Shown in pieces: positions 2,591 through 41,118 of a stretch of 64,000 nucleotides of DNA. How positions within the stretch are numbered: the first letter of the stretch is position 1; the number at the start of each line of letters is the position of its first letter. A model generated the notes under the pieces. That model was not told where the DNA came from and made no database searches. It saw nothing but the letters and a program-made list of their open reading frames with translations. Source of the DNA: Malacoraja senta (taxonomy: Eukaryota); contig CM075978.1 of the NCBI GenBank assembly GCA_038087875.1, forward strand, positions 127,224,001 through 127,288,000, in the 5' to 3' direction. Both the position numbers and the translations under genes were made by a program.

Positions 2591-2728
<138 letters not shown>

Positions 2729-3082
2729 TAATTGAGGAGAATTATCATTATTTTACGTTAAGTGCTCTTGAGATCGATAATGGATTGGCAAAACAAAGCT
2801 CACATGAAGCACAATGGTTGACCACTCTTCTAAATATATTTGTATGCTTATTTTATTGTGAAAATAAAGGCTATTTATAAAGGTCCAATCTGCTTTTGCT
2901 TATTGTACCAGCAAGGAAAGTTTTGCACATCTGTGTATCGGTAATATTAGCTTATTAACAATTGTGCTGCTTTTTAAACAAAACGAAGTAAAGCTATGTG
3001 ATAAAGTTCCAGCTATCGTCCTGATTTTTGAAAAGCAGTCGCATTGAAACGTTGGTGACATGCAGCTTTTTTCATGTGATAT

Positions 3083-3845
3083 TGTAAATTGCTCGTTCTA
3101 AGCTTCCCCCCAGTCTAGTTTCAGTCAAAAATCACTGAATCAAGCACTTGCGCATCAAAACTTTATTTTGACAAAACACAATTACAGTTCCCACTACTGT
3201 ACCTAACCACCGCGGGTTCGATCCTCGTATCTGCCTGATCAAGCCCTCTTGGCATCGCTCAAACAGAGACACTCCAGAAGGTCACGTAATCCTAAACGCA
3301 CTCCCAGAAGATCGACATAGGACCTCGTGGCAGCGGACTTTTATAAGTCCCCGGACCTTGAGGGGCCGAACCACATGGGGGTGGCCTCTTTACAATCCAA
3401 TTACAGATATCGATTAACCCCATACATGACAGACATTTCCCTAACCCAATAATACAGTGGCTAATACATTGTATTCAAACAGTGTTTCTCAGAGGAAACG
3501 AACATCGCAACATTTGCCCTGATATGCAAGAAAACCTGACAAGGCTCAATACTTAATCCAATCAACATTCAGCAAAGTAAAGCTTTACAACATTATTTAC
3601 AATGTGTATGTCTGGTTTGCATTCATCCAATCCATTCTATGCATTTTGCATCTAATTGTCAGGGTCTGCAGATGTTCCCATTCTCTTCCTGCAGCCCTGA
3701 TCTAGGCTCTAGACAAACTGGCACCACTCTGCAGCTTGTCCCATTTCTACAGAAAACACTTTTAAATTGACCAAATGGCCTAGAGGCCCAGAAGCCTTTA
3801 CTCAATTTTAGGGTTCTAGCCTCTCCAATTTGACCAGGATTAACA
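3083..3845 (-). repeat. 3' LTR of the ERV (763 bp)
   Basis: TGTAAA...TTAACA on +; about 95% identical by manual count to the other LTR; - strand TATAAAA at 3339-3345 and AATAAA at 3162-3167. Confidence 0.92.
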
Positions 3846-3857
3846 TTCAGTCCTTTT
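3846..3857 (-). other. Polypurine tract (imperfect) of the ERV
   Basis: AAAAGGACTGAA on the - strand, directly abutting the 3' LTR. Confidence 0.6.
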
Positions 3858-5955
3858 ATCATATATGATAACCCATCATTTATGGTAACCAAATAGTCAA
3901 ATAATCAGCTAACCAGATATACATATGTGTGTTCATTACATTCTCCATCTATCAACAACAGAAGATGATGATGTTTCTTCCCAGAATCTTGTCAAGCTTC
4001 CCGAGTTTTCGTGGGCGTAGCTTCACAATTTCCGTCTGATGAGTCTTCACCTCCCGAGTTTTCGTGGGCACAAATTCCCTCCATCCGCGTTGTTGCCCAT
4101 TCTTCCATCCCTTTCCATAGTCGACCCTATAACGTATAATTCTAAAAAACTTGGGACAAAACTTGAAGTTACCATTCATGCACCAATGCTTCCCCATACA
4201 TTCACTGTAATTCTGCAATACTATCTCTTTTCCATTTCACTATTACTATCCTATTATATTCTGTTCTATAATATACTCTTTTCTATCCTAGGATCAACAC
4301 TAATCAACTCTCTCGATATTCACACAATGTTATAATATGTATATCTGATGATGGTTTCTCATATAAATTTCAGCTGGGTTCAGTCCAGATTTCCCTACAG
4401 GCGTGACTCTTTTTTAAAGCAAACCATGATGAATGTTCCAATTTAACCAAATTCAGTCTCAGCCTTCAATTTACTATTTCAAATTTCAGTGTCCATCTCA
4501 TCCTTCTCATTCTGCAGCATTGTGGCCGATAACACAATTTCATTCCAATTCCTGTGGAATTCCCAGCTGTTCAAATGTAATCAATCAATTTCTATATGCT
4601 GTCAATTTCATCATAAAGCCAATTAAGAATGCCAATTCCAGGGACAATTTCTTTCCACCTTGATAATAGAAGCCGCTTTACCATCAAGGGTTAAACAATT
4701 TAGATCCATCAGTCAAATACATCGTCTCTGATATCTCCACGCCCATTCAAGTTTCTCCTTCTAATTCGATAGACTTCTCCTCCAGTACTCTCTTCCTTAG
4801 TATGTTGGCTCCGCTCTCAGTCTAGGGGTTCTCGCTTATACTAGTTCTTAACTACTGAGTAATTTCCTAGTCCGGTCTCTTAAAGGGAAGTCCAGCTGCT
4901 CACAGTTCCTCTTTTGACCATTTCCAATTCCAACTCTCATGTTCCCTGAATAATTTCCATACTACTACCAGATCTTCCCAAGTTCCATCCTTCCCGATGT
5001 TCTCTGAACAATCCTTCCCATCTCTGGCTGCCTGTCTGGGGATGAGACAATAACAATATCAATTAATAATCAAACTCCAAATATTCCTAAGCCAAATCTC
5101 CCCAGTCAGTTCCAAATCTCAAATTTAAAGTCCCTCCAATTCACTACCATACAATTTAGAGACCGAATTCCAAATTTTATAAATTTATTTCTAATAATCA
5201 TAATTTAGACGCAAAGTAGGTGTTTTACCCCAACCCACAGAGGAATGTCTTTTTATTCAAATTCAGTTCTTCAAAGTGGGGCTTACTCCAATAGTCATCA
5301 TAGGATGTCGGTGTTGCTTCTTTAGGGAAGATTAGATAGTGTCCTTTATTTTCCTTCCTTTACTGGCTTCAAAATCCAGATGATATTAAAGTTGGGCACT
5401 AGGGTAGGTTTTCTACTTCTTCTTTCCTGATGTCACTTTCAAGGGAGTAAGGATACTGAGTAGCAGCTTTCTCTATCAGTTGGCCTTCCCAGATTTGTCT
5501 TAAAGGGACAGGACAGTATCATTTCCTCCTGCTTGTTGATTCCTGTTTCTGGGGAGCTACATTACCTGTGCTGTCTTCTGCCCGTTCTCAAGGGGTCTGT
5601 GTATTCTTTACCTCACTCCCCAGATAGTATGTTGTCGATTATACTGTCCTGCAGGCACAAACTCAGGAACACGTTAGTATAATAGCTTCTTTCCCCACTC
5701 CCATACCTCCTGCACAATAAGTTTGTTTTTTCTCTCCCTAGTGCCATTTCTTCTCCTTAGTTCCAATTTTTTCTCACGCCAGCTACTATGTTTCTTACTT
5801 CCTCCTTTCAGTGAGGGATTCTCGAGAATTAGATTCTTTGTGCCTCCTCCTAGAATTTGGAAGGGGTAATGTTCTCTCTGGTTTTTATTGCTGTTTTTGG
5901 GCCATGTGAGGACGCCTTCAGATTTAATAGATAGTATTTAACTGGCAGGTTAGGG

Positions 5956-7771
5956 CTAATGAAATGGGTTTGATTGCCAAAATGTCCCTGCCCCCTGATC
6001 TCCTTGCCAATGTCCTCGTCCTCTACCTTCAGGGTCCCAAGTATACCAGTAACCTCTCGGAATCCACTGGTTTCTGAAACCCCGTGGCCCTCTTCTTTGC
6101 CCCCTTTCTTCTCAGTAGTACTCCCTCACAGGACACAACCGACTCCAATGTCCCAATTCCCCACAGTTGTAGCACTGATCTGGTCGGACCGCTCTATAAT
6201 CTCTCCAACCAATCCGAGGAAAAGTCGGCTCTCGTAATGGTAGATCTATCCAAGCTTTGAGATCTTCCTCCTGCTTGTCTTCCTCCGTCTTTATTTCCCT
6301 TTTTGAATTTTTAATATAGGTCTCTGTATAGGTCTCTGAGCTGCCTTTGGATCAGGCTGCATTAAAGTCTGAACATCTGTGGCCAGGGGGACATTTATAC
6401 CTATTGCGGGACTTAATACCAAAGGTGGAGTAGGCAGCGTTCTACAAACGAACTGCCTACGGGGAATCCGTTCTATACCGCCATCGTCAGGGAATTGCTC
6501 TGACATAATAAATCCCTCCGTATCCTCCTGCTGTCTCACCCTCAGAAAAGCTATTCGTTCTGTCTCTGTACTTCAGGAAGGATTCCTTCACTTTCCCACT
6601 ACTGGATTTTCTAATTAAAAGCCCTGTCCCACGGTACGAGTTCATTCCAAGAGCTCTCCCGAGTTTAAAAAAAATCAAACTCGTGGTAAGAACGGAGAAT
6701 GAACGTAGCGGGTACGTCGGAGCTCGGGGACATCTCTTACCGCTCGTACCGCTAACGGCAGGTACTCGGGAAGACTCGCTAGCGGCGGGTAAGCACGGGA
6801 AGACTCGTGAAGATTTTTCAACATGTTGAAAAATGTCCACGAGAGCCCCGAGTACCGACGAGTGACCATTACCGTAAATCTCCTAGTTCGAATCAGGGCA
6901 AACTCGGGAGAGCTCTTGAAATGAACTCGTACCGTGGGACAGGGCTTTAATTTTGGTACCCATTTCGACGGAACCTTCCTTCTAGCTCATTGATCTCCCA
7001 TACTATCCTCCACTGGTAGAACAATCATAGGAGCTAAAGGATCCTTCCCCGATTTTTCCACTTCAGATTTGAATTTAGTGGGAGGAGCTGATGATAACGC
7101 TGACTCCTCCCGTGTGCCCTGCTCGCAAGCTGTGCATGGTGTCTCCAAACTGGGAACATGAGAATGCTGTGAGGAATGCTGTGGCTCCATTCCGAAAAAT
7201 TCTACCCAGGCATATTTTGAGCATGTCTCCCTTCAAGGTCTCCAGATACTGCTGCATTCTTACCAAATATAATAAGTTTCATTTTAGTCGGCACCTCCCC
7301 TTTAAGAGCCATCTCAGTAGTTTCCCTTTTAGAAGATGGTGTTCTCTCCTGCTCCTGCTCCTGCTCCTGCTGTTGGCTTCCACTATCTTCCTTTCCCTGT
7401 TCTGGAATGTCTCGAGAACGACCAGTTCTCTCGTGTTCCCCTCTAATTCCTAATTTATATGCCACCATTCTTAGAGTAGACAGCAAAACGATCTCTTTAT
7501 TTATTTTCCTTCTAGTGAAGAACATTCTCCATATTCCAATTAGCTCATTCCCTTCTTCACTGTTCCCATATCATTTAACAATTGTTTCTACGTAGTTTAT
7601 TGCTATTACAGATTTTAGTCCACCCAGCGGCAAAAGTTCGCTTCTCAAAACTCCGTTTAATTCTCCTGATAATCCTCTTAATCTGTCTGCTTCATGTGGA
7701 AGCTTCTTGCAAATTATCCTTATCGGACTTCCTGGTCTATTTGATCGGTCCATCTCTGAGACATTCCCCAT
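5956..7771 (-). pseudogene. gag: Decayed retroviral gag
   Basis: MGNVSE start (ATG 7771, N-terminal Gly); MHR-like ESFLKYRDR (6559-6585); zinc knuckle CYNCGELGHWSRLC (6133-6174); terminal TAG 5956-5958. Internal stops (7571, 7202, 6112), frameshifts and a MITE insertion. Confidence 0.8.
6619..6946. mobile_element. MITE with ~50 bp TIRs and TTAA target duplication, inserted in gag
   Basis: TIR AGCCCTGTCCCACGGTACGAGTTCATT(C/T)CAAGAGCTCTCCCGAGTTT; TTAA at 6615-6618 and 6947-6950. Superfamily uncertain (Kolobok-like TSD, Harbinger-like termini). Confidence 0.88.
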
Positions 7772-9630
7772 TTTTTGCGCATTAGTTACAAAACAAAATA
7801 AAATTCCAGACACTAACACCTATTCAAACTCACTCCTTCCTTTCAGATTCTAAGGTCAATAGAGTCTCTCCCACACAATGGCTAATCGTCTCTCAGATTC
7901 ACACCTACTCGCGCTATGGTTCCCTTCCAACCGTTACTCAATCACTCACTCAATCGCTCCTATTCAATTATTCAAACCACTCACATATTCAATCGCCCTC
8001 CCAACTTTCTTATCAATTAGATCACAATCACTTAATTCAACTCTAAACTTTCAAACAATGGATCTCCGGTTTCTCAACCCAAGACTCCAACTCTCAATCT
8101 TCCAAGCAGTAATCTCTCCCACTCAATCCACTTTAAGTTTGCACAGACAAACAAATCCGAACCATGCTAATAAAACTATAATCAGAAAAGCAAATATTCC
8201 TCCGATTACAATTAACCCAAAACAAATCCCAATATAAACTACAAGCATCCAATAAATCACACTCTAATAAATCCTCCTCGTGGCACAATCGGTCAGCGGA
8301 ATGACTCCTCCCCTGACACAGCAATCGAAAGATTACAAACCCTGATCGAACCACCATGACTCAGATTCTCACAATACTACAATGTAAACAATTACAAATA
8401 TTTAATTCAAACACACCTTTACTTCAATTATCTAAATCCTTAAACACTCACACATGCAGCATACAACTATGGCGGTCCGTGAACTTAACACACTCTAAAT
8501 CTTAACTTTCTAAATCTTAATACACTCTAAATTTATTTACATACACAGAATATTTACACAATTCGGATCCGATAACAATACAAAAAGCTAGATTTTTACA
8601 ATTTACAAAAATGATTTAAAGTGCTAGCGCGCAGTTTACAAACACTTGATCTGAACGCCGCGTCACGCTGCTATCAATCGGTGAACCTCTCCCTCCGATA
8701 CCGAAGATTTTCCCCTTCCTAGGTTACGCTTTGCTGAGGGGTTCTACTCCTTAAATGACTACTTTTCCTCCCAAATGTTACTATCCTCACGCTAAGACTG
8801 GACTGCTATAGGGGGACCTCTATCCCTCCTCTCTAAGTTCTACAGAATTAGGGGTACCCTTCGCATTCGGATTACTTTTCACCAAGTAAACCAGGTTCCC
8901 GTCTCTCAGGTACTCTTCGCTATCAGGTACTAATCAACAATCGACCAGAGGGTTACTATTCACTGTTGATCAGCCGCTATTCGGAATCGATCACAAACAT
9001 GCACAAACTCCGAAGTTCTATCTGCAAGAATTTGAATTCTACCGTACGGGCAGAACTTCAATGTGAAATTCTGTATTTGGAAATTTGATTCTGCAAATCT
9101 AGGCTTACTCTCGAACTCCTAGTTTTGGTGCGTACCACTCCACATACGCGGGCTCGATAATACAAACTAAATTGCCCAATGAAATCTCGAATGGACTAGA
9201 ATATTCTCAGCCAATCTATACTCTATCCACCGAGCCCAGTACCTTTACGAGATTCCTCGTCCGTCACTCCAGGGAGGGACTCAGATATCTTCACGCAGAC
9301 ACCCCTCTCTGCTGGGCACTGAGGGTTCAGCGCCAAGCCTCTTCACGCTGGCAGTCGTCGATGCCGATTTCGGAACGCACCTTTCCAATCAGCACTCCCA
9401 GCAAAGATAGATCAATACGTAGGCCAGACCTGTGTTTCAATACCCCGCCAATTGGATACCAAATCTGAACCTTGGGCCACCCCTCACCCAATGAAGCGCG
9501 TCAGGCTCTCGTTAAAGCAGCTGCAGTCTGCCAACTATGACCAAGTTTTGGGTCACTCCACGCCCTGTTTTATGGGCCCCTAACCCAAAGGAGTGCTAAC
9601 CACCACCCCACCCCCCCACCCCCCCCATGC

Positions 9631-9770
9631 AGAGTCAGGGGATATGGGGAGAAGGCAGGAACGGGGTACTGATTGGGGATGATCAGCCATGATCACATTG
9701 AATGTCGGTGCTGGCTGAAGTGCCAAATGGCCTACTCCTGCACCTATTGTCTATTGTCTATTGTCTATTG
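9631..9770 (+). mobile_element. CR1 3'-end fragment inserted in the ERV leader
   Basis: GGGGATATGGGGAGAAGGCAGG...CCTACTCCTGCACCTATTGT with a (CTATTGT)n tail, matching the CR1 end at 50550-50669. Confidence 0.85.
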
Positions 9771-9933
9771 CTTGCTAGACTCTGTTCCAATGATCTCGAT
9801 TGGACCCTTTCCCAAGCCCGCGAATGATTGATCCGCTCCGAGTAACGGAGTGCCGAAAACCAATGAAAAAACTGCACAGTGGGCCCGATTTCAACACCCT
9901 TGATTGCAAACTTGTGTTTGGGGGTCCATTGAG

Positions 9934-9951
9934 ATCCTGGACGAGCCCCCA
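9934..9951 (-). other. Primer-binding site, tRNA-Pro
   Basis: TGGGGGCTCGTCCAGGAT, one base after the LTR CA; one mismatch to the MLV-type tRNA-Pro PBS TGGGGGCTCGTCCGGGAT. Confidence 0.92.
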
Positions 9952-9952
9952 A

Positions 9953-11536
9953 TGTAAATAGCTCTTTCTTAGCTTCCCCCCAGTCTAGTTTCAGTCAAAA
10001 ATCACTGAGTCAAGCACTTGCGCATCTATACTTTATTTTGACAAAACACAATTACAGTTCCCACTACTGTACCTAACCACCGCGGGTTTGATCCTCATAT
10101 CCTCTTGGCCTCTCTCAAACAGAAACACTCCAGAAGGTCACGCATTCCTAAGCGCTCTCCCAGAAGATCGACACAGGACTTCGTGGCAGCGGACTTTTAT
10201 TGGTCCCCGGACCTCGAGGGGCCGAACCACATGGGGGTGTTCTCTTTACAATCCAATTACAGATATCGATAACCCCATACATGATAGACATTTCCCTAAC
10301 CCAATAATACAGTGGCTAATACATTGTATTCAAACAGTGTTTCTCAGAGGAAACAAACATCGCAACATTTGCCCTGATATGCAAGAAAACCAGACAAGGC
10401 TTAATCCAATCAACATTCAGCAAAGTAAAGCTTTGCAACATTATTTACAATGTGTATGCCTGGTTTGCATTCATCCAATCCATTCTATGCATTTTGCACC
10501 TAATTGTCAGGGTCTGCAGATGTTCCCATTCTATTCCTGCAGCTCTGATCTAGGCTCCAGACAAACTGGCACCACTGCAGCTTGTCCCATTTCTACAGAA
10601 AGATTAGATTAGATTAGAGTTTTACTTTATTAATCCCCTTATTCAGGGGAAATTCAGATGTCCTTGCAGCACACAAATAAAAATACAACATAGCATTAAA
10701 GAAGAAGTTTAACATTAAAACATAAAAACACCCCCCCACAGTGGGAAGGCACAAAGTCCAGTCCCCATCCCCATGTCCACCCATAGTCGGGCCTATTGAG
10801 CAGTCGCCGTTACGGAGGCCCGATGGTCCAGGCCGTTTTTGCCGGGTGATGGTGCCCCGGCGTCGGGAGAACCCCCTCAGCAGCTTGGGGTGCCAGGAAC
10901 GGCCGCCTCCTTACAGGCCTTACGACCGCGGCTTGCAAGCCAACATGCCGCGCTGGACGGAGCTCCACACACTGGTGATCTCGGCGAGTGATCCCAGGCT
11001 CCCGATGTAAAGTTCAGCGCCGCCGCCCGCAGCTGGCCGCTCCACAGACCCGCGGCTCCGCAATGTTTTTTTATCGGCGGTCCCAGCATACCGGGGTTCC
11101 AGCGCGGTGACTCAGGCAAGGCACCGCCCACTCCGCGAAAGCGCTCCATCGCTCTGCCGCCGCCGAAGCCGAGGTTCTGGCCAGGTATCCTCAGGAAACA
11201 CCGCTCCAGGCTGCGCTGGTAGGCCACGAGGACGGGTCAAAGGTGCTGCTCGGAGGAAAGCAGCCTCTCCGACCAGGTAGGGACTTGAAAAGCAGTTTCC
11301 CCCTTCCCCCCACCACCCCCCACACATAAAAAAAAGATTAGGCCCCCTGACTGCACACTCAACGTACTAAAAATAATAAAAAAGAAGGGGGAAAAAACGG
11401 ACAGCTGCAGGACAGGCAGCCATTCAGGACAGTGCCTCCTCCACAAGCACTTTTAATTTGACCAAATGGCCTAGCAGCCTAGAAGCCTTTACTCAAATTT
11501 AGAGTCCTAGCCTCTCCAATTTGACCAGGATTAACA
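9953..11536 (-). repeat. 5' LTR of the ERV, interrupted by an 842-bp insertion
   Basis: 9953-10602 plus 11448-11536 align colinearly with 3083-3845. Confidence 0.92.
10603..11444 (-). mobile_element. GC-rich non-autonomous retroposon (copy A) with Rex1-like 3' tail
   Basis: Absent from the sister LTR; flanked by AAG/AAG; - strand end GAATTTCCCCTGAATAAGGGGATTAATAAAG followed by (AATCT)n. Confidence 0.75.
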
Positions 11537-12509
11537 ATATCATACACATTCAAGATAAAACATAACGTCAGCTAAAGCAGTTTCAGAAGTCAGAGATAAT
11601 TGGATTATGAGTGGCAAATAACATTAATTTAAAACTGTACTTGTTATCTGATATTAACATAATTAAAAGTGGCCAAATATGATAATATGAAAAATAAAGC
11701 CAAATAGATGTTTGCAGGAAAGTTCAAATGGAGAATCTCATAGACACAGAGTTCAGGCACAGCAATACTGCCACTAGCAGGAGAAATTAATTACAGCATA
11801 ACATGCTGATCAATATTACCATGCGCAAAAGGAAACGACTACTATATAAATGTGACAAAAGTGTTACAATATGAACTCCAGTAGACTCAGGAACAGCTTC
11901 TTCCTCTTTCTTAACAGGCTGCTGAACGGTCCTTCCATAAGCTAGGGTATTATACGATTCACTTCTACCCAATTGCAGACATTGAACTTTGTGTCTGGAA
12001 CTAATGCGTTACCATGCTTTAACACATATTCACAATCTCCATGATATCTCTGTCCTGCATCTGATACCTTACAATGTGGGTTGTAATTGCACTTCGAAAG
12101 TGCACAAATCCATATTTTGGTCAGCTATTCAGGGCTAAGATTTTCCGCCAACTGGACAGCACGCAACAAAAAAGCTTTTCACTGTACCTCGGTAAACATA
12201 ACGATAAACTAAACTAAACATCAGCAAACACAATGCTGGAGGATGTGTTGTCAATGGAACTAATACACTACAACATGCTAGAGAACTTATTCTGCACTGT
12301 GTATCATCCCCTTAACTCTATCTCAAGAGTCAAGAGTGTTTTATTCTCACATGTCACGGACAGAACAATGAAATTCTTACTTGCAGCAGCACAACAGAAT
12401 ATGTAAACATGGTACTGTATGTATTGTGTGACTTGATTGTATTTACCTGCAGTTTCTGATCTGATTGGACAGCATGCAAAGCAAACCTTTTCACTGTACC
12501 TCAGTACAA

Positions 12510-13596
12510 TACAATAGACAATAGGTGCTGGAGTAGGCCATTCGGCCCTTCGAGCCAGCACCGCCATTCACTGTGATCATGGCTGATCACCCACATTCAG
12601 TACCCCGTTCCTGCCTTCTCAACATATCCCCTGACTCTGCTATCTTTATCTAACTCTCTCTTGAAAGCATCCAGAGAATTGGTCTCCGCTGCCTTTTGAG
12701 ACAGAGAATTCCACAGATTCACAACTCTTGGTGTGAAAAAGTGTTTCCTCATCTCCGTTCTAAATGGTCTATCCCTTATTCTTAAACTGTGGCCCCTGGT
12801 TCTGAACTCCCCCAACATTGGGAACATGTTTCCTGCCTCTAGCGTGTCCAATCCCTTAATAATCATATGTTTCAATAAGATCCCCTCATCCTTCTAAATT
12901 CCAGAGTATACAAGCCCAGCCGCTCCATTCTATCAACATATGACAGTCCCGCCATTCCAGGAATTAACCTCGTGAACCTACGCTGAACTCCCTCAAAAGC
13001 AAGAATGTCCATCCTCAAATTGGGAGACCAAAACTGCACATAATATTCCAGGTGTGGTCTCACTAGGGCCCTGTACAACTGCAGAAGAACCTCTTTGCTC
13101 CTATACTCAACTCCTCTTATTATCAAGGCCAACGTGCCATTAGCTTTCTTCACTACCTGCTATACCTGCATGCTTACTTTCAGTGAGTGATCAACAAGGA
13201 CTCCCAGATCTCATTGTACTTCCCCTTTTCCAAACCTGAAACCATTCAGATAATAATCTGCCTTCCTGTTTTTGCCACCAAAGTAGATAACCTCACATTT
13301 ATCCACATTAAACTGCATCTGCCATGCATCCGCCCACTCACCCAACCTGTCCAAGTCACCCTGCATCCTCAAAGCATCCTCCTCACAGTTCACACTGCCA
13401 CCCAGCTCTGTGTCATCTGCAAATTTGCTAATGTTACTTGTAATCCCTTCATCTAAATCATTGATGTATATTGTAAATAGCTGCGGTCCCAGCACCGAGC
13501 CTTGCGGTACCCCACCAGTCACTGCCTGCCATTCTGAAAGGGACCCGTTAATCCCTACTCTTTGTTTCCTGTCTGCCAACCAAATTTCTATCCATG
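12510..13596 (-). mobile_element. CR1 LINE, 5'-truncated (RT C-terminal half and 3' UTR)
   Basis: ORFs with GVPQGSVLGPQLFTIYINDLD...SKFADDT and LVRPHLEY; TSD TCAGTACAA (12501-12509 and 13597-13605); inserted into an older Rex1-like tail. Confidence 0.93.
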
Positions 13597-13796
13597 TCAG
13601 TACAAGTAACAATAATAAACCTAAACATAATATCTTAAAAGGTTCATCTTTAAGTATTATCTTCCCAAATGTAAACGTTAAAATTCCCATTTCTGTCGTG
13701 TTTTAACCATTCTAATAGCTATATAAGATTGATAATCTTTCTCAGTGCCATAATATCCTTGCTGCAATATAGCCCAGAACTACACACACCAGTATA

Positions 13797-14065
13797 GCAT
13801 AGTGGCGCAGCAGTAGAGTTGCTGACTTACAGTGCCAGAGACCCAGGTTCGATCCTCACTACGAGTGCTGTCTGTATGGAGTTTGTACGTTCTCCTCATG
13901 ATCGCGTGGGTTTTCACCAGGTGCTCCGATTTCATTCCACAGTCTATGGATTTGTAGGTTAATTGACTTTGGTAAATTGTCCTTAGTGTGTAGGATAGTG
14001 TTGGTGTATGGGAGATCGCTGGTGGGCTCGTTTCCACGCTGTATCCCTGGCCTAAACTTAAACTA
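13797..14065 (+). mobile_element. V-SINE (HE1-like)
   Basis: GTGGCGCAGCAGTAGAGTTGCTG head, GGTTCGATCC B-box, TAAACT tail. Confidence 0.82.
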
Positions 14066-15231
14066 ATGTAGTCAGGGATCAGCTAATAAACTTTATAAAT
14101 TGCTAATCCCACATTATGATTAAAATTCAATTCTTGGTGCATCAATCCCAACAATCTGATTTCAATGTGTAGGGAGGAACTGCAGATGCTGGTTCATGCT
14201 GAACATAGACATAAAATGTTGGAGTAACTCAGCAGCTCTGGCAGCATCTGGAGAAAAGGAATAGGTGACGTTTTGGATCGAAACCCTTTCAATGCTCTTT
14301 TTCCTGAACATGTCCTGCTCTAGCATATGATAAAAGATGTATTTTACAAAATGTTCAGTCCAACTGCTTTTTAAGAAATCAATAGCAGGTAGGAAGTTTA
14401 TAAATTCATCACACGGGACCCAATCTGTGCCGATGTTGCCTGTGGTGGTGATTTTCTTTTGCAGCAGTGCGGCTCCTGACATTCTGCCAGCCTCGCTGGT
14501 ACGAAGGCTTCTATACGCGATAATTAGACCACAAGAGGCAGAGGGTAAGACCCTACGCACAATCCAGGTGCTGTCGGCTCATCCTGTCAGTAGGTTCTCC
14601 CCTCTAAATCGGCAGAGACATTTCCAAACAGCTGACAAAAAAATGCAACCATTTTTTAAATAAAAAATATTAAGACATGATGAATCAATTTAAAACCATA
14701 GTCCACGTATCTGAATTCAAAACAAAAGGACACAAAGTTCTCGAATAACTCAGTGTCATAGAGTCAAAGAGTGAGACAGCCCTCAGCCCAACTTGCCCAC
14801 ACCGACCAACAAGCCCCATCTACACTAATCCCACCTGCTTGTTTTTGGCCCATAAACTTCTAAACCTACCCTATCCATGTACCTGTCTAAATGTCTCTTA
14901 AACATTGCAATAGTATCTGCCTCAACTACCTCACCCTGCAGCTCATTCTATACACCCATCACCCTTTGTGTAAAAAAGTTACCCCTCAGGTTCCCAATAA
15001 ATCTTTCCTCCCTTCACCTTAAACCTCGGCCTGAGCGATCCCTCAACCCGAAACGTTACCCATCCATGTTCTTCAGGAATACTGCCTGACCCACTGAGTT
15101 ATTCCAGCACTTTGAGTACTTTTGTGTACTAGCCAGCATCTGCAGTTCTTTGCTTCTAAATTAGAAACAATATTATTTATTTGAAAAGCTTTTCTTCACT
15201 TCCTTTCGATTCCAATAAACGAGGCTGCTCC

Positions 15232-15451
15232 CAGGGCACGTGGGCATGCTGGACAGTTGCCCGGGGCCCCACGAGCATAGGGGCCCCATGCTAATCTATG
15301 TATTGTAGAATGTTATTGTAGAACATGAAAACGGAGAAGAACATCGCAAGTGCATGACGACATATTTGATTCGGCATAAAGAAACTGGAAGTGTAGGGGC
15401 CCCAGTGCACTACTTTGCCTGGGGGCCTATAATGCTGTTAAGACGGCCCTG
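15232..15451. mobile_element. Small non-autonomous hAT element
   Basis: CAGGGC...GCCCTG termini, 8-bp TSD GCTGCTCC (15224-15231 and 15452-15459), internal GGGGCCC motifs. Confidence 0.85.
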
Positions 15452-16024
15452 GCTGCTCCCAATGTGTGGCGGAAAGCGGCTGCATATCCAGTCCAATGAG
15501 GAGCAGTTGTGGATTCTGGTGAGTTGGATGGACAGCATCTCATCTCTAGTGTAAACCTGTGGAGCTTGATACAGCCCATAGAACATAGAACACAGAACAG
15601 TACAGCACAGGAACAGCCCACAATGCCTGATGCCAAGTTAAACTAATCTCCTCTGCCTGCATGTGATCCATATCCTTCCATTCCCTGTATATCCATCTGC
15701 CTATCTAAAAACCTCTTAAGTGCCATTATCAAATCTGCCATCAGCACCAACCCTGGCAGCTCATTCCAGGCACCCACCACTTTCTGTGTAAAATACTTGC
15801 TACTCACATCTTATTTGAACTTTCCCCACATCACCTTAATGCTATACTCTCTCGTCTTTCACATTTCTACTCTGGGAAAGAAAGGTTCTGACTGCCTACC
15901 GTATCTCTGCCCCTCATCATTTTTATATACCGGTAATTCTATCAGGTCTATCCCCAAACCTCCGGAGTTCAAGAGAAAATCCCCCCCCACCCCCCCATGT
16001 TTTGTGAAACATGTTGCAACAAAA

Positions 16025-16540
16025 CCGCCCGGGATTGGCTGTAGTGCCCAGGTCGGCTCACCTGCCCTGGGATTGGCTGTAGTGCCCAGGTCGGCTGGCA
16101 GGACTGGGTGCCCCGGGACTGGCTGTAGAACCAAGGTCGACTCGCCTGCCCCACACTCCATAGACGTGCAGGTTTGTAGGTTAAGTGCTTCGGTAAATTG
16201 TAAATTGTCCCTAGTGTGTCGGATGGTGCTAGTGTACGGGGTGATTGCTGGTCGGCGCAGACATGGTGGGCCAAAGGACCTGCAGTTCCCAGGTCGCCTG
16301 CGTGCCCAGGTTGGCTCACCTGCCCCGGGACTGGCTGTAGCGCCCAGGTCAGCTGGCAGGTCCGGCTGTAGTGCCCAGGTCCCCTGCATGCCCTGGGAAT
16401 GGCTGCAGTTCCCAGGTCCCCTGCGTGTCCCAGGACTGGCTGCAGTTCCCAGGTCGCGAAAACTTATTGAAAAAAACCCGCCTGCTGATTTCGGCTTATG
16501 GGCCGGATCCGGCCCGTGGGCCGTAGGTTGCTGACCCCTG
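16025..16540 (+). mobile_element. Right part of a hAT-Charlie-like element with an internal GC-rich minisatellite
   Basis: Ends GGCCGGATCCGGCCCGTGGGCCGTAGGTTGCTGACCCCTG followed by TACTAGAT; repeated GGCTGTAGTGCCCAGGTC units; V-SINE fragment at about 16150-16280; left TIR not found. Confidence 0.65.
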
Positions 16541-16861
16541 TACTAGATGTTAGACCTCATTGTGGCCACCCCCCCATGTTTTAAAAGCGATTTCCTCCCA
16601 TTTCTTCTACGATAGAACTTTATTTATCCCAGGAGGGAAATTGGTCTGCCACAATCATAAAACACAAGATACATTAATTAAATACGTTACAAAATGGAAA
16701 AGACGATCAACTGTTGGCTGGCTGCCGTGTGCACGGAACAGGATGTGAATGTATATGTGAATCTAATACCCTCTAATCCAGTGGTTACGTTTCTTTCCTA
16801 ATTTCACTATTTTATGTCAGCACTGAATTCCATTCAGTATTTCCTAGCCAACTTTCTCAAC

Positions 16862-17281
16862 CAAGTCAAGTCAAGTCAAGTCACATTTATTTATATAGCA
16901 CATTTAAAAAACAACTCTCGTTGGCCAAAGTGCTTTACATTTGTTATCAGAATAGTATAAATAAACAAACTACATACATATATACATATAGCCCTCGCTC
17001 AGTGGACGTCAAGAAAGGCTTGGGAGAATAGATACGTTTTTAGTCTTGACTTAAAGGAGTCGATGGAGGGGGCAGTTCTGATGGGAAGAGGGATGCTGTT
17101 CCACAGTCTAGGAGCTGCAACCGCAAAGGCGCGGTCGCCCCTGAGCTTATGCCTAGACCGCGGGATATTCAGCAACCCGAAGTCGGACGATCTGAGGGAC
17201 CTGGAGGTGGAGTGGTGGGTAAGAAGACTTTTAATGTAGGTGGGGGGCAAGCCCATTGAGGGCTTTGTAGACATAGAGGAG
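16862..17281 (-). mobile_element. L2-clade LINE 3' end
   Basis: Encodes LPPTYIKSLL...SRSLRS...RGDRAFAVAAPRLWNSIP...FKSRLKTYLFSQAF; (TTGAC)n tail at 16862-16882. Confidence 0.88.
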
Positions 17282-18647
17282 GTACAACCAGTACTTTCTG
17301 CTCTTGAATAATCTTCTTGATTATTTTCAATCCTTACCTCCCCAGTGTCATTTTCAATTAAAAAACGGATAGGCACCAGAAGATCGCTAATGGATAAGTC
17401 GCCAAATACACAACCCTGTGTTGATCCTAGTTGGCCAGAAGGCACTGATGTATAGCAGTGATACTTTAAAACAATCCAAAAATGAGAGAAAAAGTGACCC
17501 AGAGCACATGGAAATTGCTTCTGTTGTGTATGTCAGCAAACATCTTTCTCCATTTACCGGTGTATCGTCAACATTTTCTCATTTTAGATTATGGCCCAGT
17601 GCTATGTTAATGTCAATAAATGAAGCAAAAACATCCACTATTCTCCACTTTGCCCCAAACCCTTCTGCTGAATTTTGGATAAATGAATGCGTAAATCAAT
17701 ACCTATCACTAAATGGTTTCGCTTAATTGACAGGTGAGTTGATGCAAAATAAATTTTCACTCTCACATCCAAAGCTTTGAGGAGAAATGTTTGCAGTTTT
17801 GTCATAACTAATACACAGTTATGTGTAATACACAGAGGAATTCTTCAATAACACATTTCAAAATCAGGAGCAGGCATCTTGAATGCAGAGGCTTCGAGAT
17901 GATGCTGTGGGATGCAGGTGCAAAGATGTTAATGGGATTTTTGTATCTAGCAAAGGTATAAAACCTTCCAAAATAACTGAGTTAAGAACTCTAATATCAT
18001 GCCAGAGAGAAATAGCAAAACCAGAACTTTATGTGCTCCAAGTTAAGTGACTGCTCTGATGTTGTATTAAAGAAAGAAATGTTTATCAACATTTCTTTCT
18101 GTGTGAGAAAAGAACTGTACATTGTATTTTCCAGGCAATGTTATTCAGCAGAGATGTAGCAATGTAATGCAAGGCAGTAATGCCTCTTTCAATATTCTTT
18201 CAGTTGGCCAAAAGTAAAGATTTAAATATTCATCCACTTAAGAGCTACATCATGCAATATAGTATAGAACACATTTGCACAGTATTCAAATGAAATTTGC
18301 ATTATCGTGATATTAACTGATTTTGCGCATGCCTTTTTGCTAATGAGGAAGGACTGAGAGCTATGAGAAATCCATGTGCCCTGATACTACCCCTGGCATC
18401 CACTTTAACCAAATGCTGCCGACAGACATTCAAATTTGGCTCTAGTGGGATTTTCAACCACATTGGTCAAAGTCAATAAGATCTCAGCTTGAAGAGGGGT
18501 CTCGACCCAAAATGTTCGTATTCATGTTCTCCAGAGATGCTGCCTGACCCGTTACTCCAGCACTCTGTCTTATTGATCTATGTCATGATTGGCACAGTTC
18601 TCTATGATATATTTTACAGGAGACTCCTTGCTGCATTCTTTATACTT

Positions 18648-18928
18648 CAGAGTTTAGATATACAGCGTGGAAACAAGCCCCTCAGCCCACCGAGTCCGCA
18701 CCGACCAGTGATCACCCCTTACATTAACCTATGTAAACTAGGGACAATTTTACAACTTACCAAAGCAAATTAACCTACAAACCTGTATGTTCTTGGAGTG
18801 TCGGAGGAAACCGAAGGTGCCGAGGAAAACCCTCACGGTCACAAGGAGAATGTACAAATTCCGTACAGACAGCACCCGTAGTCGGGATCGCACCCGAGCC
18901 TCTGGCGCTGTAAGGCAATTTGTAACTT
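18648..18928 (-). mobile_element. V-SINE (HE1-like)
   Basis: Same family sequence as 525-844. Confidence 0.82.
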
Positions 18929-19139
18929 TGCCTCCTGTCCAAGCATGCCAGGGGTGTTGATGAACAAGACCTGCACTGCATTGTCCAGACCACATGGGTG
19001 CACGGGGATCGATCTTGCGGACCTAGCAACAGTCTGACAGGGCAGGCCAAGGCTCAGCAAAACTCAGTACATTGCCCTGGTTTTATCATGGCATAGTTCA
19101 CCCTCAAATGTCCAGGAATGAAGAAGATTGAATAAAGTG

Positions 19140-19500
19140 ATGAACTGCCCAGTCCATCATGGGTACTGACCTCCCCACCATCAAAGGCATCTACAGGAGT
19201 CACTGTCTCAAAAAGGCAGCCAGCATCAGTCCCACACCACTCTGACCACGCTCTCAAAGGCCCACACCACCCTGGCCATACTCTTGTTTCACACCTGCCA
19301 TCGGGAAGAAGGTATAGGAGCCTGAAAACTGTAACTTTCAGGTTCAAGAGAAGCTTTTTCCCTACAACCATCAGTATATACTGTATATACAGAACTATAT
19401 ATTATGGTGTTTACAGAGTACTATGTTTACATATCTGTTGTGTTGCTGTAAGTAAGAATGTCATTGTTCCGTTTCAGGACATATGACAATAAAACACTCT
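19140..19500 (+). mobile_element. Rex1/Babar-like LINE 3' fragment
   Basis: Translates roughly to TAQSIMGTDLPTI...HPGHTLVSHLPSGRRYRSL...RFKRSFFPTTI; 3' end GACAATAAAAC. Confidence 0.7.
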
Positions 19501-19537
19501 TCACTCCTGACTGTTGACTCAATGACTGTGGGATTGA

Positions 19538-19699
<162 letters not shown>

Positions 19700-21110: not shown

Positions 21111-21482
<372 letters not shown>

Positions 21483-24157: not shown

Positions 24158-24667
24158 AGGTTCAAAGGGTTCAAAAGTCAGTTTATTGTCACACGTACCA
24201 ATTAAGGTACAGTGAAACTCAAAACCATACAGCCATACTTTAAAAAAAGCAACAAGACACACAACTACATAAAAGTTAACATAAACATCCACCACATTCC
24301 TTACTGTGATGGAAGGCAATAAAGTCCAATCTTCTTCCCCTTTATTCTCCCACGGTTTGTTTGAGTCAAACTATTCGCAGTTGGGGCGATCGAAGCTCCC
24401 GTGTTGGGGCGATCGAAGCTCCCGTGTCGGGACGATCGAAACTCCCGCGTCGGGGCGGTTGAAGCTCCTGCGGTTGGAGCTCCCGAAGTTGGCCTCCAAC
24501 AAAGGCCTCCAACTCCTCGGTTAGGCCGCATCTCCGTCGTGGTAAGAGATTTAAAAAAGTTTCCCTCACCCCCCACATAAAACAAGCAAAAGAACACTAA
24601 AACATACATTTAACACATACTAAAAAAACAACAAAGAAGGAAGGGACAGACAGACTGTTGGCGAGAC
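24158..24667 (-). mobile_element. GC-rich non-autonomous retroposon (copy B)
   Basis: Head shared with copies A and C; internal ~22-bp tandem repeats (CGATCGAAGCTCCCG) at 24380-24485; tail GACAATAAA followed by (TTTGAACC)n; flanked by TTAA on both sides. Confidence 0.7.
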
Positions 24668-40803: not shown

Positions 40804-41118
40804 GGGCCTGTCCCACTGTACGAGCTAATTCAACAGTTCTCCCGAGTTTCCCCTGATTCGAACTCGGAGAATTACGGTAATAGCCGCTCGTAGGTACTCG
40901 GGGCTCTCGTGGACATTTTTCAACATGTTGAAAAATCTTCACAAGTCTTCACGAGCTTACCGCGTTTCCCGAGTACCTGCCATTAGCGTTATGAGCCGCT
41001 AAGAGACGTCCCGAGCTCCGACGTACCCGCTACGTACATTCTACGTGCTTACCACGAGTTTGATTTTTTTTTTTACTCGGGAGAGTTCTTGAATTACCTC
41101 GTACTGTGGGACAGGCCC
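40804..41118. mobile_element. MITE of the same family as 6619-6946, opposite orientation
   Basis: GGGCCTGTCCCAC TIRs, TTAA at 40800-40803 and 41119-41122, shared internal sequence. Confidence 0.88.

Follow-up and report, generated by a model that had tools for sequence, protein, structure and literature searches.

An ALK intron of Malacoraja senta holds a dead member of a skate family of endogenous retroviruses (ERVs) that is epsilon-like, non-autonomous and present in many copies. The sole gene of the family appears to be a capsid-less gag kept under purifying selection. The family was likely copied by an env-less gag-pro-pol relative, with the short Gag of the family likely acting as a packaging adaptor in cis. 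We consider this combined reading probable, with real room for doubt, and set out its evidence below.

Within the window, the whole 64,000-nucleotide stretch of DNA that was analysed, the two-LTR element spans 3083-11536 on the minus strand, antisense to ALK (Table 1). A sequence-only reading of this DNA had described TG...CA LTRs, an ATAT target-site duplication (TSD), a near-perfect Pro primer-binding site (PBS), a polypurine-like tract (PPT) and a gag with an N-terminal Gly and one CCHC. These features, which are those of a class I ERV, are all present, the PPT in a weak form. Its LTR length of about 760 bp holds for the 3' LTR; a foreign insert of 845 bp at 10600-11444 brings the 5' LTR to 1584 bp. 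The PBS was scored against what we take to be the tRNA-Pro motif, and the full 18-mer is found in L050, L060, L128 and L129. Gag opens with MGN at 7771 and continues through a matrix-like N-terminal domain, a charged linker, a capsid stub, the CCHC and an RG-rich tail ending in NPF.

Table 1. Features of the element, its nested inserts and the adjoining ALK exons (window positions).
Feature	Position	Strand	Evidence
ALK kinase exon 5' of intron (RDIAARN...)	2635..2727	+	
TSD ATAT, left	3079..3082	.	sequence
3' LTR, 763 bp, TG...CA	3083..3845	-	
3' LTR AATAAA	LTR position 679 (window 3167)	-	
3' LTR TATAAA	LTR position 501 (window 3345)	-	
Weak PPT, purines 11/14	3846..3859	-	
Post-integrase 3' segment, 70-84% identical in pol-bearing lineage	3961..4086	-	
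Decayed integrase-core remnant, 63-68% identical to env-less lineage integrase	4353..4770	-	
Non-coding post-gag stretch, partly shared with capsid-bearing sisters L131, L132 (78-82%)	4771..5955	-	
Capsid-less gag, with frameshift, stops and insert in window copy	5956..7771	-	
Single CCHC zinc knuckle	6133..6174	-	Pfam zf-CCHC E 6e-8
328-bp MITE inside gag, 54-nt terminal inverted repeats, TAA duplication	6619..6946	.	
Leader, about 2 kb, 83-85% shared with sisters L131 and L132	7772..9933	-	
146-bp piece of common repeat, in leader	9623..9768	.	matches in 43 records
tRNA-Pro PBS, 17/18 versus tRNA-Pro complement	9934..9951	-	
5' LTR, 1584 bp, TG...CA, broken by 845-bp repeat	9953..11536	-	
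845-bp repeat inside 5' LTR	10600..11444		
TSD ATAT, right	11537..11540	.	sequence
ALK exon 3' of intron (ASYYRKGG...TDTW)	19564..19665	+	

The host gene is ALK by its best PDB match (94 bits versus 58 for ROS), and we take it to be ALK and not LTK, which was not among the PDB matches listed. As had been proposed, the intron (2728-19563, 16,836 bp) splits the activation loop at DIYR/ASYY, and the element makes up 50% of it. This copy looks ordinary, an old intronic insertion in antisense orientation with nothing to suggest a role, and it may serve as a shared marker among skate species. Three nested inserts of 845, 328 and 146 bp had escaped the sequence-only reading. The 328-bp MITE, presumably Harbinger-like, recurs at window 40807-41115 and in L145; neither it nor the 146-bp repeat was found at the same gag or leader site, respectively, in other family copies. 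One locus initially listed as a relative (L058) matched through the 845-bp repeat only.

Remnants apart, the window element contains no capsid, pro-pol or env. Other family copies retain 55-105 nt of the RT start in the post-gag stretch, and the integrase remnant of the window copy has a local score of 77, where shuffled sequence reaches 17 at most. A pol profile is nearly blind to this stump at the protein level (best iE 0.007 among the copies; none in the window), so the integrase assignment rests on DNA similarity. An env remnant considered for the 3' region had no match to the env ORFs of the genome; the segment is integrase. The leader likely holds the packaging signal, and the post-integrase 3' segment, conserved in the pol-bearing lineage, is a candidate cis signal.

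The genome-wide LTR search that the sequence-only reading had suggested revealed a high-copy family, with 3482 candidates for the LTR, 1102 for the 3' internal part and 481 for gag DNA, all to be read as candidates or lower bounds and not as counts. The matrix-like domain was recovered in 150 of 150 scored matches, giving at least 150 gag-bearing loci; internal copies probably number in the hundreds and LTRs in the thousands. We read 47 loci of these several hundred. The copies, 68-92% identical, share the capsid-less, pol-less layout, with a spacing from matrix (MA) to nucleocapsid knuckle (NC) near 1.3 kb in every copy free of an intervening insert. Other family loci carry 4-bp TSDs of their own, exact in L033, L035, L002 and L004. 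The family is thus a non-autonomous ERV in which a common internal deletion was amplified to many loci. The capsid profile, which scored 280-417 bits on full-length capsids from five loci outside its training set, reached at most 12.8 bits in 41 family loci and the window, and only within positions 1-39 of 229. Class I pol or env was detected at the protein level in none of the 47 loci or the window, and the integrase stump is present in 36 of the 47 as well as in the window; the window element and the family loci hence lack the capsid, pro-pol and env of an autonomous provirus.

The expectation of a pol/env-bearing master copy is accordingly not supported, the deleted layout being common to the copies. 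One candidate for a full-length master (C2250) owes its extra 4.5 kb to what we read as LINE pieces, a segment bringing RT frames of its own and endonuclease-like text. Seen in isolation, the window copy resembles a decayed provirus, and Gypsy-type pol occurs in two family copies (L080 and L096 only), as would be expected of an ordinary provirus from which pol and env were lost once it had inserted into ALK, or of a Gypsy retrotransposon. The deletions are however common to all copies read, the Gypsy pieces are nested and have LTRs of their own, and the score of a related intact pol is 463 bits on MLV RT versus 182 on Ty3; we regard this explanation as refuted and give it next to no weight.

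The family gag is homologous to the gags of gag-pol-env elements (L121 and L123, matches down to E 1e-10) and nearly always keeps its N-terminal Gly, a signal for plasma-membrane targeting. The same capsid-less junction is found in an annotated gene model of Leucoraja erinacea, the little skate. No aligned locus (0/42) has a gag frame open from ATG to end, the best being L077 with two stops near its start. The name "matrix-like" reflects only where the domain sits and its homology to the N-terminal end of complete gags: the domain had no Pfam or PDB match, its two AlphaFold models were all-helical and poor (pLDDT 48 and 51), and at E<=0.001 no fold match was obtained with the low-confidence model. 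PDB sequence, ESM Atlas, longer-protein and Rfam searches returned no result.

Selection on gag was assessed by a tree-free tally of variants shared between copies versus private ones, with CpG sites excluded. With half of the copies chosen by protein similarity, dN/dS was 0.24 for shared but 1.23 for private variants (p=9e-27), and the shared value fell to 0.15 in MA and 0.11 in NC versus 0.41 in the linker; the two off-frame values were 1.09 and 1.16. Restricting the tally to 20 copies picked by DNA gave 0.19 shared versus 0.86 private (p=5e-10). Across both sets, MA and NC ranged from 0.05 to 0.15 versus 0.4-0.6 for the linker, whose constraint is gone once only the copies picked by DNA are used (0.6, p=0.57). 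Some non-gag frames also have low shared values (0.43-0.56), from small counts. Read from these substitution patterns, the capsid-less gag was under codon-phase-specific purifying selection during the spread of the family and not after insertion, with the strongest constraint indicated for the matrix-like and zinc-knuckle regions.

Retroviral packaging signals often extend into gag, and the constraint might have acted on the RNA or on mere translation, through packaging structure or escape from decay, instead of on protein function. PMC6466679 cites a paper whose title names translation of the mouse element IAP IΔ1 as the determinant. The synonymous excess nevertheless sits in a single codon phase and is far stronger in MA and NC than in the linker, and upkeep of the frame alone would purge stops, not amino-acid changes. 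The domain-specific dN/dS largely refutes this account, which we hold to be very improbable. Selection by the host would be another source of constraint, the capsid-less Gag being kept as a restriction factor that poisons assembly of related Gag or in a Bhikhari-like developmental role, with amplification a by-product of few conserved expressed loci. It fits the Leucoraja gene model and the zebrafish gag-only ERVs described as required in development in the excerpt consulted (PMC12067270). The neutrality of private variants, the lack of an open gag frame in the 42 aligned loci and a constraint seen on variants common to copies, as expected of replicating lineages, speak against it, and we judge it quite unlikely.

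A pol-bearing relative exists in the same genome as a lineage (675 candidates, sampled as L139 and L141-L156) in which no match to env was found. In common with the family, this env-less gag-pro-pol lineage has the LTR, the PPT (L143, 84%), the matrix-like domain, the integrase and the 3' segment. It is a separate lineage, its LTRs being only 63-71% identical to those of the family. All 17 of its fetched copies are decayed and only L146 could be dated by its LTRs. In the RT tree, a chondrichthyan clade (100/100) joins the walleye epsilonretrovirus WEHV1 at 98/95, a placement obtained with one epsilon reference and midpoint rooting; since the family has no RT, grouping with class I retroviruses was tested on that of the lineage sharing its integrase and LTR, and on L121. 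This supports a position with the epsilonretrovirus, and not with gammaretroviruses or Gypsy, and narrows the earlier assignment to gamma/epsilon-like class I; RT and integrase are not of Gypsy type. Walleye viruses have accessory ORFs and a His or Gln primer. Given the Pro PBS and the lack of further Pfam domains in nine frames of the window element, we describe it as epsilon-like and not as a member of the genus Epsilonretrovirus. A Gag_p30-bearing family has only PBS and knuckle in common with it and an RT on the gamma side. That the host is a skate is borne out by a related ERV RT of this genome, which shares 99% identity with a protein of Amblyraja radiata.

Because other Pro-primed autonomous families, including env-bearing class I ones, are present in the genome, the env-less lineage stays a putative helper. 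VL30-like co-packaging into particles of env-bearing ERVs would have spread the same non-autonomous family by infection, and the near-universal retention of the N-terminal Gly would suit this. We consider it unlikely: outside the PBS region, the DNA of those families shows no similarity to the element, whereas LTR, PPT and 3' segment are shared by the env-less lineage, one copy of which is equal in age.

With the env-less lineage as helper, the LTR would produce a Pro-primed RNA, to which the short Gag may bind via its zinc knuckle and RG tail. The N-terminal Gly domain would bring this Gag to the assembly site of the helper, where it could co-assemble with helper Gag as a minor component, and helper RT and integrase would then make a new copy within the cell.

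Regarding age, alignment of the window LTR pair reproduces the earlier manual count of about 39 substitutions and 4 indels (39 in 739 columns, 23 transitions and 16 transversions, plus 4 small indels; p=0.053, 95% CI 0.038-0.071; K2P 0.055). The accompanying statement that the insertion can be dated stands for relative divergence but fails for absolute age: K=0.055 translates into about 125 My at 2.2e-10 per site per year, the shark rate assumed in PMC4422223, and into about 12 My at the mammalian rate given in the same excerpt. Between the two LTRs of a copy, K2P is 0.058-0.079 for 11 family members and 0.057 for the pol-bearing L146.

A broader picture, to which we give slightly less than even weight, is that skates harbour a long-lived parasite of retroviral origin with a single protein, a capsid-less Gag with membrane-targeting head and RNA-binding knuckle, which loads the parasite's own RNA into helper particles. 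It would be the end of a deletion series from gag-pol-env through env-less and gag-only to capsid-less gag, each step amplified in the same genome. That the capsid was dropped, yet both flanking domains are strongly constrained, suggests a minimal packaging adaptor acting in cis and is relevant to the ways in which a defective retroelement gains access to helper particles. Judged by titles and abstract openings, literature searches listed no paper on this family or on a capsid-less gag-only ERV. Subscription papers, Dfam/Repbase and the supplement of bioRxiv 2021.11.23.469661, which reportedly lists env-bearing ERVs of six cartilaginous fishes, could hold relatives.

Among known systems, the mouse pairs VL30/MLV and ETn/MusD have a coding relative that mobilises a defective element in trans, as proposed for the skate family, and MusD is env-less like the proposed helper; as far as the sources consulted describe it, ETn is non-coding with LTRs near-identical to MusD, whereas the skate family conserves a protein and its LTRs and those of the proposed helper are only 63-71% alike. 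Mammalian MaLRs carry a gag-like internal ORF, a single gag-derived ORF as in the skate family. They are very numerous non-autonomous LTR elements too, but class III and mammalian (named in an excerpt of PMC4724089). The elephant shark CmiERV lineages II and III, compared by description, and the walleye epsilonretroviruses are epsilon-side class I elements like ours (excerpt of PMC4422223). The definition of CmiERVs required pol plus env, so a pol-less family would escape that screen, and families of this kind are missed by shark ERV screens that demand pol or env. Zebrafish Bhikhari-1/-2 and chicken ENS-1 are likewise gag-only non-autonomous ERVs, Bhikhari also in a fish (PMC12067270, in part). 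Bhikhari is however a young lokiretrovirus with a coiled coil and capsid in its Gag, a combination absent from the skate family, which has a CCHC and belongs to another clade; the capsid, the one Gag domain retained in Bhikhari and ENS-1, is what was discarded here. A precedent is mouse IAP IΔ1, likewise internally deleted, non-autonomous and amplified after the deletion (PMC6466679 and PMC1331978, excerpts), although it is class II with a gag-pol fusion ORF, in contrast to an old class I epsilon-like family shared among skates whose ORF lacks the capsid. Its truncated Gag-based fusion protein is described as acting in cis (PMC6466679), and by analogy a packaging-adaptor role in cis is likely for the short skate Gag.

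The insert in the ALK intron is a real ERV-derived element which, ordinary as an intronic insertion, represents a family that has been amplified, has gag as its only gene, lacks the capsid and shows a clear signal of selection. The sequence-only reading had described two LTRs with TG...CA ends, an ATAT duplication, a near-perfect Pro primer binding site and occupancy of half of the 16.8-kb intron, all of which were recovered, and its manual count of about 39 substitutions and 4 indels was borne out by alignment, which gave 39 substitutions in 739 columns (K2P 0.055) and four small indels besides one 845-bp insert. The LTR carries TATAAA at position 501 and AATAAA at 679, and the PPT is weak. 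An 845-bp insert in the 5' LTR, a gag insert of 328 bp that is a TIR element, and a leader insert of 146 bp are missing at the same sites in other copies; the core comes to ~7.1 kb, and the copies L040 and L035 measure 7165 bp and 7217 bp, respectively. The window gag is disrupted by a frameshift, stops and an insert.

Coordinates of the window element, its surroundings and related loci in the Malacoraja senta genome (L, loci; C, contigs)
Feature	Location	Strand	Remarks
Window element	window 3083-11536	minus	antisense to ALK; TG...CA LTR ends, ATAT duplication
3' LTR	window 3083-3845	minus	
5' LTR	window 9953-11536	minus	carries 845-bp insert
Primer binding site	window 9934-9951		tRNA-Pro type; 17/18 positions of the motif
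Integrase stump	window 4353-4770		65% to L139 integrase core, score 77 (shuffles at most 17)
ALK intron	window 2728-19563		50% occupied by window element
Exon downstream of intron	window 21126-21266		best match human ALK
328-bp TIR element, other copies	window 40807-41115; L145:4082-4393		86%; 79%
GC-rich minisatellites, ALK introns	window 16025-16462; 24383-24483		18-37 bp units; 23 bp units
Gypsy elements nested in family copies	L080:1659-6323; L096:542-6204		LTRs 98% identical
Pol-less capsid-bearing sisters	L131:2825-9901; L132; L140		
Second CCHC knuckle	L131:5529-5627; L152:5777-5866		~450 nt downstream of gag knuckle, different frame
Epsilon-side class I ERVs	L121:677-9901; L122:1-9541; L126:371-9080		long open gag, pol, env-like frames
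Second Pro-primed family, gamma-side	L047-L066, L069, L070; env loci L019-L026		Gag_p30, pol and env
Insert within ERV	L136:5277-6278		weak similarity to Dam methyltransferase (E 9e-4, short of the cut-off); possibly DIRS-type
Tandem arrays of ERV pieces	G000:C2:142892371-142897262; C7:26197963-26216220; C1715		regular spacings of 2347 bp, about 5.9 kb, about 8.1 kb

The expectation that the insertion could be dated held for the measured divergence and not for the date itself. A K of 0.055 translates into about 125 My with the shark rate assumed in PMC4422223 and about 12 My with a mammalian rate, and as the direct shark estimate in PMC10587355 is 7e-10 per generation, no firm date follows. 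Left-flank contigs continue 23-30 bases into the LTR in all four sequencing runs, from four organisms, which falls below our junction threshold of 31 bases and is no more than suggestive of a filled left junction in these organisms. Compared with the window over about 850-900 bases, three of these flanks show 26-29 substitutions (about 3%). This divergence is lower than that of the LTRs, which would fit an insertion older than the split of those organisms.

Searches of the same genome returned 3482 candidates with the LTR, 1102 with the 3' internal part and 481 with gag DNA (40 scored each), while the N-terminal domain matched in 150 of 150 scored, hence at least 150; solo LTRs made up five of the nine best LTR matches other than the window. 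All 47 sampled loci, a few being the same element read twice, are colinear with the window across overlaps at 68-92% identity. The distance from the zinc-knuckle region (NC) to the 3' LTR, measurable in 28 of 46 loci, was 1990-2320 bp for 14 of them and 210 bp for another. The remaining loci have longer gaps, and those scanned held a LINE-type RT, Gypsy with its own LTRs or frames without an informative Pfam match. The anticipated pol/env-bearing master copy did not emerge, as three class I pol and three env proteins of this genome found no class I pol or env in the 47 loci and the window, the two nested Gypsy elements being the exception in that search. The deletions came before the family's spread.

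The family gag is without a capsid. Its alignment with the capsid-bearing gags of L131, L132 and L140 breaks off after the first few capsid residues and picks up again shortly ahead of the knuckle, and in the copy L077 a stop-free frame of 477 aa runs from the N-terminal domain through to the end. A capsid profile of 229 positions matched 7 of 41 family loci, scoring no higher than 12.8 bits and only inside positions 1-39, and gave no match in the window, compared with 280-417 bits on full-length capsids from five loci outside the training set. The capsid-less junction recurs in LOC129701504, a protein of Leucoraja erinacea and the sole match among 5037 candidates. A profile of the N-terminal domain found relatives in shark and skate and led to many related families in M. 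senta; structure prediction and fold search gave no demonstrated fold for it. No description of a capsid-less gag-only family was found in the literature searched, repeat databases lying outside that search.

Selection was assessed by a tree-free count comparing codon states common to at least three of 38 copies with states private to one, CpG sites excluded. Shared states gave a dN/dS of 0.24 (164 nonsynonymous, 164 synonymous) versus 1.23 for private ones (511, 100; p=9e-27), with shared values of 0.15 in the matrix-like N-terminal domain (MA) and 0.11 in NC, the linker standing at 0.41. Twenty copies chosen by DNA similarity only gave 0.19 versus 0.86 (p=5e-10), with 0.07 in MA, 0.05 in NC and 0.6, not significant, in the linker. 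Low shared and near-neutral private ratios indicate that the gag protein mattered in replicating lineages and not after each insertion. One rival reading has the capsid-less gag kept through host co-option, and these near-neutral private changes speak against it; another places the constraint at the RNA level, against which stand ratios of 1.09 and 1.16 in the two off-frames of gag. Ratios in the integrase stump, in the leader and in 3' stretches were 0.43-1.19 on small counts.

An integrase stump was found in 36 of 47 family loci, and a short RT-start remnant persists in other copies. The env-less lineage around the gag-pro-pol locus L139 numbers 675 candidates, and 16 further copies have pro-pol and mostly a capsid-bearing gag, with no match to three env queries; from integrase end to LTR is usually well under 1.5 kb, and all copies read are decayed. 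Where covered, lineage and family agree at 63-71% in LTR, 63-71% in integrase and 70-84% in the post-integrase segment. Divergence between paired LTRs is 0.058-0.079 across 11 family copies; in L146, which alone among the env-less-lineage copies could be dated in this way, it is 0.057. In an RT tree of 34 rows the lineage lies within a clade of chondrichthyan sequences (100/100) whose link to WEHV1 has support of 98/95, and a quick tree of 65 rows, omitting L133, L136 and L080 for short coverage, is concordant. The proposed gamma/epsilon-like class I placement is supported on the epsilon side, through this LTR- and integrase-sharing lineage, and the gamma group lies apart from it.

Some related families are complete gag-stop-pol-env elements with an MLV-type integrase C-terminus and a gamma-type env. 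Their pol scores highest on MLV RT, at 463 bits compared with 207 on foamy and 182 on Ty3, which argues against a Gypsy affiliation. An env-bearing element as helper is the rival to the env-less lineage. Three sisters (L131, L132, L140) resemble the window at 72-85% in leader, LTR and 3' region and carry another gag, which includes capsid and is 37% identical over the N-terminal domain; the shells seem to have exchanged their gag cassettes. For the gamma-side Pro-primed family there are 71 matches to Gag_p30 and 78 to env, many of the env frames being ~667 aa long. LTR pairs of the epsilon-side elements are 99.8-100% identical, indicating very recent activity in this genome; they share no DNA similarity with the window element.

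The best reading is that the family is non-autonomous and that the env-less lineage would serve as its intracellular helper for copying, whereby the short Gag, acting in cis, would carry the RNA that encodes it to the particles of the helper; we infer all steps, from transcription through co-assembly. Precedents are the fusion protein of IAP IΔ1, which acts in cis, and VL30, which MLV co-packages (PMC6466679), as well as ETn, which relies on the env-less MusD (PMC1331978). Zebrafish Bhikhari, as described in PMC12067270, is likewise gag-only, but has retained the capsid that is absent in the skate family.
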